Part shown: positions 45,661 to 58,551 of the stretch, piece by piece
How the letters are laid out: the number at the start of each line of letters is the position of its first letter
Numbering within the stretch: position 1 is the first letter of the stretch
Source of the DNA: Eledone cirrhosa
Taxonomy: Eukaryota
Assembly (NCBI GenBank): GCA_964016885.1
Contig: OZ024747.1
Span: 50,034,001-50,098,000, forward strand
Direction of reading: 5' to 3'
Length of the DNA stretch: 64,000 bases
The notes under the pieces: generated by a model
What the model was told of the DNA's origin: nothing
Seen by the model: the letters and a program-made list of their open reading frames with translations, nothing else
Databases searched by the model: none
Translations under genes and position numbers: made by a program

Positions 45661-47485
45661 TAACTATAGAGGCATTAAATTAATCGACCAGGTCATGAAG
45701 GTCACGGAAAAAGTAATAGCGCAACTAATCAGAGAGAGAATTGACCTAGATGAAATGCAGTTCGGGTTTGTGTCAGGCAAAAGTACCACAGACGCTCTTT
45801 TCATAGTACGACAACTACAGGAGAAGTACCTAGCTAAAGGTAAACCCCTCTACTTAGCTTTTGTCGACTTGGAGAAAGCCTTCGACAGAGTCCCCCCGCT
45901 CCATTATCTGGTGGGCTCTTAGAAAACTAGGCGTTGACGAATGGCTTGTGAGGGCTATGCAAGCCATGTATAAAGAAACAGTCAGCAAGGTTAGAATTAA
46001 CAACGAATATAGTGAAGAGTTTAGCGTAAAAGTTGGCGTCCATCAGGGCTCTGTTCTCAGCCCACTACTATTTATTATTGCCCTTCAGGCTATAACAGAG
46101 GAGTTCAAGACAGGCTGCCCATGGGAACTCCTATACGCAGACGACCTGACACTCATAGCGGAATCAATGGCCGAGCTAGAGAAGAAATTCCAAACATGGA
46201 AGCACGGCCTAGAGTCAAAAGGACTTAAAATTAACCTGGCTAAGACCAAAGTACTAGTTTGTAGGAAAGAAAACAAGGCGGCGGTCCCTTCTGGGAAATG
46301 GTCGTGCTCGGTGTGTAGGAAAGGCGTAGGTAGAAACTCCATTTTATGTCCTAAATGCAAAGTATGGGTGCATAAAAGATGTAGTGGGATCACAGGTAAG
46401 CTAACTAAGAACATAGATTTTACATGTGGCCGGTGCTCTGGTGCAATAAGTAGCAGCAAGTGCCCACAACTACTAGCTCTTTCAATTGCGCAGAGGGTTC
46501 TATAGAAATAGTGGACAGCTTCCGTTACCTGGGCGATAAAATCAGCAGTGGGGGAGGGTGCTCTGAAAGTACTGTAGCTAGAGTCAGAACTGGTTGGAAA
46601 AAGTTCAGAGAGCTTATACCACTATTAGCTGCTAAAGGGTTCTCACTAAAAATGAAAGGCAGGTTGTACGATGCCTGCATACGAACAGCAATGCTGCATG
46701 GCAGTGAGACCTGGGCATTGTGTGCAGAGGATATACGCAGACTAGAGAGGAACGAAGCTTGCATGCTCCGCTGGATGTGTAACAGTAATATACGTGAACG
46801 GCAAAGCATAAACGAACTAAGGAAAAAATTAGAGATAAGAGGGATCAGATGTTGTTTACTCGAGAGAAGGCTAGTTGGTATGGACACGTGATGCGCATGA
46901 AAGTCGATAGCTGTATAACAAAGTGCAGGGCAATAAAGATAGACGGTAGTCACGGAATAGGCAGACCTAGAAAAACCTGGGACGAGCTGATAAACTCCGA
47001 CATCACACACTTACACCTCTCCAAGACAATGTCACTGGACCGAGACCTTTGGCGGTACTCAGTAACAGAGAAGACCCGCCTTACCTAAATATATAGTAAA
47101 ACCTACTCCAGCCAGTAGGCATCCCTAACAAAATACACCCCGTCCCACCACCCCCACCCCTACCCCATCCACACCACCCCGTTCTATGTAAAGTTATGTT
47201 GGTGCCGCGCCATCGAGGCCGAAACAAATGAGATCGTGTAGGTGTCACGACAAAAAAACACACAGTCCACGCTGTAATGTGGCCGTGTAGGCAACACGGT
47301 AAAAACCTCCCAGACCCACACTGTAAATGTGGTTGGTGTTAGGAAGGGCATCCAACTGTAGAAAACCTGCCAGACAGTCCTATGCGAGCAAGACAATCAC
47401 TCTTGCCTCAAGTGGGACTACCCCCGTCCAAACCCATGCAAGCGTGGAACACGGACGTTAAACGTTGATGATGATGATGATGATA
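45657..47485 (+). mobile_element. Longest and best-preserved RTE LINE copy (RT domain through 3' UTR), 5'-truncated, with frameshifts
   Basis: NYRGIKL, QFGF, AFVDLEKAFDRVP, HQGSVLSPLLF, LLYADDL, FRYLGD, MLHGSETW, WYGHVMRM, GRPRKTW; frameshifts near 45895, 46470 and 46875. Confidence 0.96.
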
Positions 47486-47679
47486 TATGATAAATTTGTC
47501 AATTTACCTATTTGTTTATACTATTATTATTATTATATTTGGGAGCAAAGGAATTAAAGGAATTGCCTTTATTTATATTCAGCTTGTTATCTTTTCTTTT
47601 AGTCTTTTAGTAAATGTATTTGATAATAATAATAACAATATATATATATATGCATATATATGTATATATATATATATGC

Positions 47680-47711
<32 letters not shown>

Positions 47712-47716
47712 GTATA

Positions 47717-47756
<40 letters not shown>

Positions 47757-47757
<1 letters not shown>

Positions 47758-47917
47758 CAAAGGAAATGTGGTAAGGAACCAGGTGGACCATAACGCACCA
47801 AAGTACTCAATACTTGAGGTAGTAGAGTGGGTAATAGGAACCAGTAAGACCCCGACAGCTGAGCTCAAGCCGTTTCGACGGCTTGAGCTCAGCTGTCGGG
47901 GTCTTACTGGTTCCTAT
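47757..47917 (-). mobile_element. Penelope-like terminal fragment with a perfect 40-bp fold-back (47834-47917, TTCG loop) and 3' half of a hammerhead
   Basis: 47834-47873 is the exact reverse complement of 47878-47917; minus strand reads GAA-ACGGCT-tgagctc-AGCTGT-C. Confidence 0.65.
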
Positions 47918-49950
<2,033 letters not shown>

Positions 49951-50150
49951 NNNNNNNNNNNNNNNNNNNNNNNNNNNNNNNNNNNNNNNNNNNNNNNNNN
50001 NNNNNNNNNNNNNNNNNNNNNNNNNNNNNNNNNNNNNNNNNNNNNNNNNNNNNNNNNNNNNNNNNNNNNNNNNNNNNNNNNNNNNNNNNNNNNNNNNNNN
50101 NNNNNNNNNNNNNNNNNNNNNNNNNNNNNNNNNNNNNNNNNNNNNNNNNN
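49951..50150. other. Assembly gap (200 N)
   Basis: Run of N. Confidence 1.
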
Positions 50151-58429: not shown

Positions 58430-58465
58430 TCTTCTGATGAAGGACTAGCATCCGAAACGTTAAGA
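58430..58465 (+). ncRNA. Minimal type I hammerhead ribozyme motif (Penelope-LTR-type)
   Basis: Stem I TCTT/AAGA; CTGATGA plus extra A; stem II GGA-ctagca-TCC; GAAA; palindromic ACGT stem III; triplet GUU; downstream taccttccat..actgtaccgattgtgttgttatttctg shared with 20741-20790. Confidence 0.65.
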
Positions 58466-58551
58466 CCCTCTTCCTGCTATATCAAGCGTTAACATAATAT
58501 ATACCTTCCATATATACTGTACCGATTGTGTTGTTATTTCTGTTTACCTTT

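Follow-up and report, generated by a model that had tools for sequence, protein, structure and literature searches.

A perfect inverted repeat between (TA)n tracts

The window, a 64-kb stretch of the Eledone cirrhosa genome (GCA_964016885.1, contig OZ024747.1), harbors a perfect inverted repeat with arms of 40 bp and a TTCG loop, which is the sole perfect repeat of at least 14 bp found in the window at loops of up to 10 nt and a GC content above 25%. Read on the minus strand from the apex, the sequence is C-GAA-ACGGCT-TGAGCTC-AGCTGT-C-GGGG. The hairpin belongs to a stub of about 160 bp inserted between (TA)n tracts, and its outermost 2-3 bp are common with the (TA)n flank. The features of the locus are given below, with parent positions counted from the G of GAAAC in the parent element L031 (L031:3567 = 0).

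47638-47755: left (TA)n-rich target flank
47755-47883, minus strand: long arm, parent -7 to +121, containing the end of the stem II 3' strand, GAAA, stem III, GUC, the stem I 3' strand and a 79-nt tail
47755-47833, minus strand: tail (+43 to +121), between the two fixed outer ends and in one arm only
47834-47873 and 47878-47917: arms of the perfect hairpin
47854-47856, minus strand: long-arm GUC triplet, with the cut predicted between 47854 and 47853
47874-47877, minus strand: loop TTCG (CGAA on the minus strand)
47878-47883: junction microhomology ACGGCT, 6 nt, common to both arms
47878-47916, plus strand: short arm, parent +3 to +41, ending in CCTA before (TA)n
47895-47897, plus strand: GUC triplet of the short arm
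47915-49934: (TA)n-rich flank on the right, some 2 kb long, which stops close to a gap in the assembly

We take the loop CGAA to be C11.1, G12, A13 and A14 of the hammerhead core in the usual numbering. In this copy the core is incomplete in cis, the 5' core and the 5' strand of stem II being absent, and the GUC of the long arm would consequently undergo no cis cleavage. The 27-mer running from GAAAC to GGGG in the stub matched the 3.0-Gb genome 10,910 times against 0 in the control, which argues that the hairpin sequence is not a product of chance. A gap of 200 N bases lies at 49951-50150 of the window, about 2 kb from the hairpin and after a 2-kb (TA)n tract, and among the reads from four runs aligned to the stub none spans its apex.

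Two other repeats were observed in the window. At 47200-47485, left of the target, lies a repeat ending in (GAT)n that also flanks locus L001. At 58430-58466, on the plus strand, there is a separate minimal hammerhead with a canonical core (TCTT CTGATGA A GGA-loop-TCC GAAAC GTT AAGA); the sequence upstream of it also flanks loci L278 and L287, and this hammerhead probably terminates a different repeat family.

The parent element and its hammerhead ribozyme

The window hairpin is the stub of a young Hydra-type Penelope-like element (PLE). The parent carries a single ORF of 719 aa between pLTRs, with a reverse transcriptase (RT; YRDD at 348) together with a GIY-YIG domain at the C-terminus (VIY...YIG at 591); both were assigned by motifs, and a Pfam search of the ORF returned no family at E 0.1. 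The ORF also bears the Hydra-clade motifs RWR (37), DKT (117), CNCPDRSIC (572), CNLC (670) and CKH, the family inserts into (TA)n, and L031 exhibits partial-tandem pLTRs, an adjacent inverted copy and a tail at one end. The proposed placement in Hydra is based on these motifs and on a by-eye comparison of the N-terminus with published sequences, and the parent departs from two descriptive traits of the clade, a canonical hammerhead and a length generally below 3 kb, its tandem spacing being about 3.5 kb. Many identical intact ORFs were found in the family.

L031 holds a whole hammerhead at 3495-3606. Stem I starts at -72 and the core UUGAGAA at -61; stem II starts at -54 and pairs with -8 to -1 across a loop II of 37 nt; stem III comprises 6 bp with a palindromic loop, and GUC occupies +20 to +22. 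The core is of the U3-A8 type, a pattern with 2,222 matches in the genome against 78 in the control; 99 of 100 among the matches listed belong to the parent family, and an older subfamily retains U3-A8. The minimum-energy fold of the parent is a three-way junction, which is not more stable than shuffles (z -0.11), and an Rfam search of the window region and the parent returned no hammerhead, only simple-repeat and hairpin noise. The initial annotation had read the locus as a perfect 40-bp inverted repeat carrying the 3' half of a type I hammerhead from a Penelope-like element, with the 5' half missing, and in all of this it was right. It had named the missing half as CUGANGA and had proposed to look for CTGANGA upstream in intact copies; so worded the search would fail, as the upstream core is UUGAGAA.

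Several further arrangements were observed in the family. Three to five full units stand head to tail about 3.53-3.54 kb apart in arrays at G000:C1:91473193-91487428, C1:437200456-437211348 and C2:320551211-320558598, and in two arrays (L220-222 and L230-232) private variants are common to the units, a pattern that either rolling-circle copying or local duplication would produce. At G000:C3:214146643-214147885 (L244-L248), a tandem repeat of about 274 bp combines the tail and the ORF start with a portion of loop II; the 5' core is absent from it. A bulged hairpin motif lies 4-7 nt after each outer end of the stubs (L031:3616-3642 and 3693-3714), and folding recovered the one after the outer site 2 and not the one after site 1. 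Read sets of five other organisms contained at least half of the stub's words, with the same tail end in the three examined, which indicates that the family is common to relatives. We also considered the window copy as a non-LTR retrozyme, as defined in a preprint (bioRxiv 10.64898/2026.07.22.740005), and rejected this, as that definition needs tandem units each with a complete hammerhead and the window holds a single head-to-head stub.

Outer and inner ends of the stub population

Head-to-head pairs number about 19,400 in the genome, distributed by the gap between the two GAAAC as 1,437 (0-19), 13,226 (20-40) and 4,749 (41-70), and the stub insertions of the parent total approximately 20,000; hairpins in the genome, as initially proposed, thus exist in thousands. 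Arm ends were analyzed in 105 arms from the first loci of contig C1 and the window stub, as maximal matches that include chance bases and with an anchor that favors arms keeping GAAAC. Outer ends fell at two positions, the short site (site 1, +41/42) in 48/105 arms and the long site (site 2, +121/122) in 44/105, and raw reads of two other samples had loose (TA)n ends at the same two sites. Inner ends were located at -22 to -11 in 76/105 arms and at -18/-17 in 26/105, with 10 arms reading through upstream. The expectation that breakpoints are non-random relative to the ribozyme was therefore borne out, whereas their proposed position at stem II was not, since the main turn lies 17-18 nt upstream of GAAA, within loop II and ten bases upstream of the stem II 3' strand.

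The inner boundary recurred throughout the genome. Matches beginning at A(-18) with a base other than T before it numbered 10,886, some older read-through copies included. Among the matches listed, the templated part of long-gap pairs, rare exceptions aside, still stops at -18 to -22, and what remains is A/T runs or local duplications. Single-arm copies joined directly to (TA)n end at -18 in 709 cases versus 50 at -12, which demonstrates that the boundary needs no inversion. Opposite-strand joints at L031:3545-3562 were also present in raw reads of other samples. A pile of read ends at L031:3556 was dropped as evidence; these are RAD libraries whose reads start there at AATT, presumably a restriction cut.

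The junctions themselves vary copy by copy and often contain untemplated bases. The exact junction of the window recurs as a secondary hotspot, with 535 copies drawn from several subfamilies, a minority relative to the about 19,400 pairs, and its ACGGCT overlap is the largest among 40 parsed pairs. In many junctions among the matches listed, an A-run faces a T-run, over as many as about 20 bases, the pattern expected had both ends of the cDNAs been extended by untemplated or reiterated A, which is of interest for a telomerase-related RT.

One cDNA folded back or two cDNAs joined

A nascent cDNA that folds back and primes itself, as initially proposed, makes a clear prediction: when priming takes place at the tail end, the cDNA has only its own copied stretch to fold onto, so the short arm should in no case reach beyond the long arm on the 5' side. 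Starting from 50 short arms, we parsed 40 pairs, the other 10 being dropped because no long arm was found or because of read-through. The short arm reached further 5' in 20/40, the long arm in 16 and neither in 4, and in 3 pairs the arms did not overlap; apex deletion after insertion could blur this comparison. The exact junction of the window was used in both mirror forms, with the loop on the long arm in 45 copies and on the short arm in 38 (p 0.51). Together with the boundary that single-arm copies have in common, these counts indicate that the boundary is a property of the RNA template and that the join is symmetric.

For the window copy, the corresponding scenario is that a single tail-primed cDNA folded on the local hairpin AGCCGT-CGAA-ACGGCT (in cDNA), copied itself to +41 and then joined the target. 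Taken alone, the window copy is compatible with it: its geometry permits such a turn, the local hairpin is predicted in an RNA starting at -18, the junction is the hotspot of 535 copies, and templated duplications at junctions imply that cDNA ends do snap back locally. The hairpin at the junction pairs the stem II 3' strand with the stem III 5' strand and is not stem II, and a turn of this kind would require a separate explanation for the fixed end of the short arm. Given also the near-equal mirror counts, the short arms longer on the 5' side and the pairs without overlap, we regard this scenario as quite improbable, and fold-back as a general route is largely refuted. Long palindromes are unstable, and the window locus lies 2 kb from a gap with no read bridging its apex; these points would suit either a master palindromic mini-element that amplifies itself while apex deletions vary its junctions, or hairpins that are assembly artefacts. 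Both are very improbable indeed, as the junctions differ from copy to copy, often with untemplated bases, while one of them recurs in several subfamilies and in both orientations, and as the opposite-strand joints at 3545-3562 appear in the raw reads of other samples.

Nature of the inner boundary

The motif that contains A(-18), which we take to fit the invertebrate initiator consensus, is TTAGTC, with TCAGTC in its place in the older subfamily. The TATA-like box TATTTAAATA begins 29 nt upstream of A(-18), presumably the spacing of a TATA-type box to a start site. Many arms reach -21/-22 with A-runs, and the start may accordingly be a small cluster. Loop II is different in a second family (4,613 matches), which keeps TTAGT at the same place and lacks the TATA-like box; 16/30 of its arms end at -18/-17, four reach further upstream and two read through.

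A first cap test, with G in 75/80, was discarded as cap evidence because the control was equally G-rich (78/100). Copies joined to the flank had G before A(-18) in 92 of the first 100 of 195, and the extra G at -18 was about fourfold enriched over the control (about 179:514 versus 4:46, p 0.003). Where the two arms of a pair both ended at -18 (50 pairs), the base that followed, scored by eye, was A in 67, C in 18, G in 11 and T in 4, and a cap-type C was present on both arms in 6/50 pairs versus 1.6 expected. An extra G from a copied cap has been described at the 5' end of full-length L1 copies in the part of that work used here (PMC11702581). These DNA footprints point to A(-18) as a predicted capped transcription start.

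Twin priming could also hold with -18 being an RT stall or an RNA processing site, produced by loop II structure, a splice acceptor or a nuclease cut. The surroundings of -18 do resemble a 3' splice site, as we judge from the pyrimidine tract and AG, and the second family without a TATA-like box and the G-rich control of the first cap test would agree with such a site. A splice-acceptor origin was rejected, since the arms retain the AG that is lost in spliced RNA, and the reads are without any spliced joint. With the fourfold excess of the extra G, and with TTAGT and the boundary both retained in two families whose loop II is otherwise different, a stall or processing site is unlikely.

Copies that bear the ORF behave differently from the stubs. 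None of 30 ORF-bearing loci begins at -18, and copies extending through the tail do so in 3 of the 25 inspected out of 30, alongside 151 that read through. Long copies thus need another template, with read-through or circular RNA as the putative source of ORF-bearing copies.

A footprint at the predicted ribozyme cut

Pairs joined further 3' numbered 502 (control 3). Among the first 50, examined by eye, 24 have the ends of both arms precisely at +23, the position that follows GUC; filler without a template, mainly A/T, is present in 19 of these 24, and the other 5 are joined bluntly and are ambiguous. This class, an indirect footprint, suggests that cut RNA exists and is copied, and the ribozyme may cleave in vivo. 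At G000:C1:98560527-98560885 (L197/L198), a single insertion was observed in which both arms run from the predicted cut with an ORF piece between them.

A proposed model of twin priming at two fixed sites

The reading that we favor, at a probability of roughly 0.7, is that, once a (TA)n target had been cut, each of its two strands primed a cDNA of its own, at two fixed sites close to the 5' end of the RNA, and that these cDNAs ran off a predicted capped start in loop II and were trimmed and joined, in the window via ACGGCT. The endonuclease would cut both strands, and each target 3' end would prime at one of the two internal sites, on opposite strands; the long arm of the window copy, which differs from L031 by one mismatch (C to T at a CpG), is likely the cDNA primed at site 2, and the short arm likely that primed at site 1. 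Both would be first-strand copies that extend to the RNA 5' end, where the RT may add a few bases before end-joining repair trims the ends and joins them head to head, with annealing at ACGGCT in the window copy. Under this model ribozyme folding would not steer the turn, the turning points would mark the starts of template RNAs, and RNA from the element's own start would yield stubs only.

More tentatively, the position of the start within loop II may act as a built-in switch. RNA from the element's own promoter would lack the ribozyme 5' half, remain uncut, serve as mRNA and yield only stubs, whereas read-through RNA would carry the whole ribozyme, be cut in vivo, possibly be circularized, and template full-length or tandem copies. 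Stubs would then record RNA 5' ends, and twin priming at two sites might be a general source of PLE inverted ends.

Comparison with known elements

Judged by the parts of the published work used here, the parent lies close to the Hydra clade of EN+ PLEs (Craig et al. 2021, PMC8557442), with which it has in common the RT and C-terminal GIY-YIG, RW[K/R], DKT, the CxCx5C linker, CxxC and CxH near the C-terminus around a conserved E and N, the (TA)n target and pLTR tandems with an inverted copy and a tail; the N-terminus of Hydra-1_Obim resembles that of the parent ORF by eye. In the same parts, Hydra elements are generally shorter than 3 kb versus a parent unit of about 3.5 kb, their tails measure 30-40 nt versus 79 nt, and the five hammerheads listed have C3 cores and loops of 4-9 nt, whereas in the parent the core is U3-A8, loop II spans 37 nt and stem III comprises 6 bp. 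The U3-A8 hammerhead is known in the Cercyon PLE of Schistosoma (Cervera and de la Pena 2014, PMC4209133), which is alike in being type I, lying in the pLTR, and having a palindromic loop III and motifs close together on opposite strands; in the portion of that paper considered, there is no description of a long loop II holding a predicted transcription start, as in the parent family.

A biochemical counterpart is the Poseidon PAc element (Frangieh et al. 2024, PMC11167929), in which, in vitro, the tail is defined by two adjacent internal RT starts, and cutting and extension take place on both strands of the target. The two start sites bounding the tail, the use of both target strands, the AT-rich target and the predicted dimer are alike; as far as the sections used here go, head-to-head stubs and inner ends are left unexplained and no RNA reads were found to end at the ribozyme cut, whereas the parent family has an insertion class ending exactly there. 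In Adineta vaga, Penelope elements likewise have head-to-head inverted pLTRs, palindromic junctions, and TATA and Inr-like motifs in the pLTR, and in the passages considered (Arkhipova et al. 2013, PMC3846280) the palindromes were attributed to an antisense template that primes itself. The counts in the parent family favor twin priming on sense RNA instead.

In L1 twin priming, the internal position at which the second primer anneals varies, and the resulting pieces have no overlap; here, the two priming positions are constant and the two copies would run to a common RNA end, which results in a palindrome. The two systems are alike, in the part of the L1 study used, in that both target ends prime cDNA, the internal junction has microhomology and an extra 5' G occurs (PMC11702581). 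Inverted pLTRs, tails, U3-A8 cores and pLTR promoters are already known (PMC8557442, PMC4209133, PMC3846280, PMC2377424). A literature search conducted mostly outside subscription papers and bioRxiv supplements retrieved no description of a start site inside a hammerhead loop, nor, in the same scope, of PLE stubs ending at RNA 5' ends.

Implications for Penelope-like elements

The origin of PLE inverted ends and hammerhead cutting in vivo are both named as open questions in the portions considered of two of these papers (PMC8557442, section 15; PMC11167929). The approximately 20,000 independent junctions of this family constitute a natural experiment on them: for this family, their counts oppose the published self-priming idea, and they predict a start site to the base and give a footprint at the predicted ribozyme cut. 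Owing to the many identical intact ORFs, each step is testable in vitro. For the genome of E. cirrhosa, the stubs amount to thousands of perfect hairpins, a putative source of dsRNA if they are transcribed.
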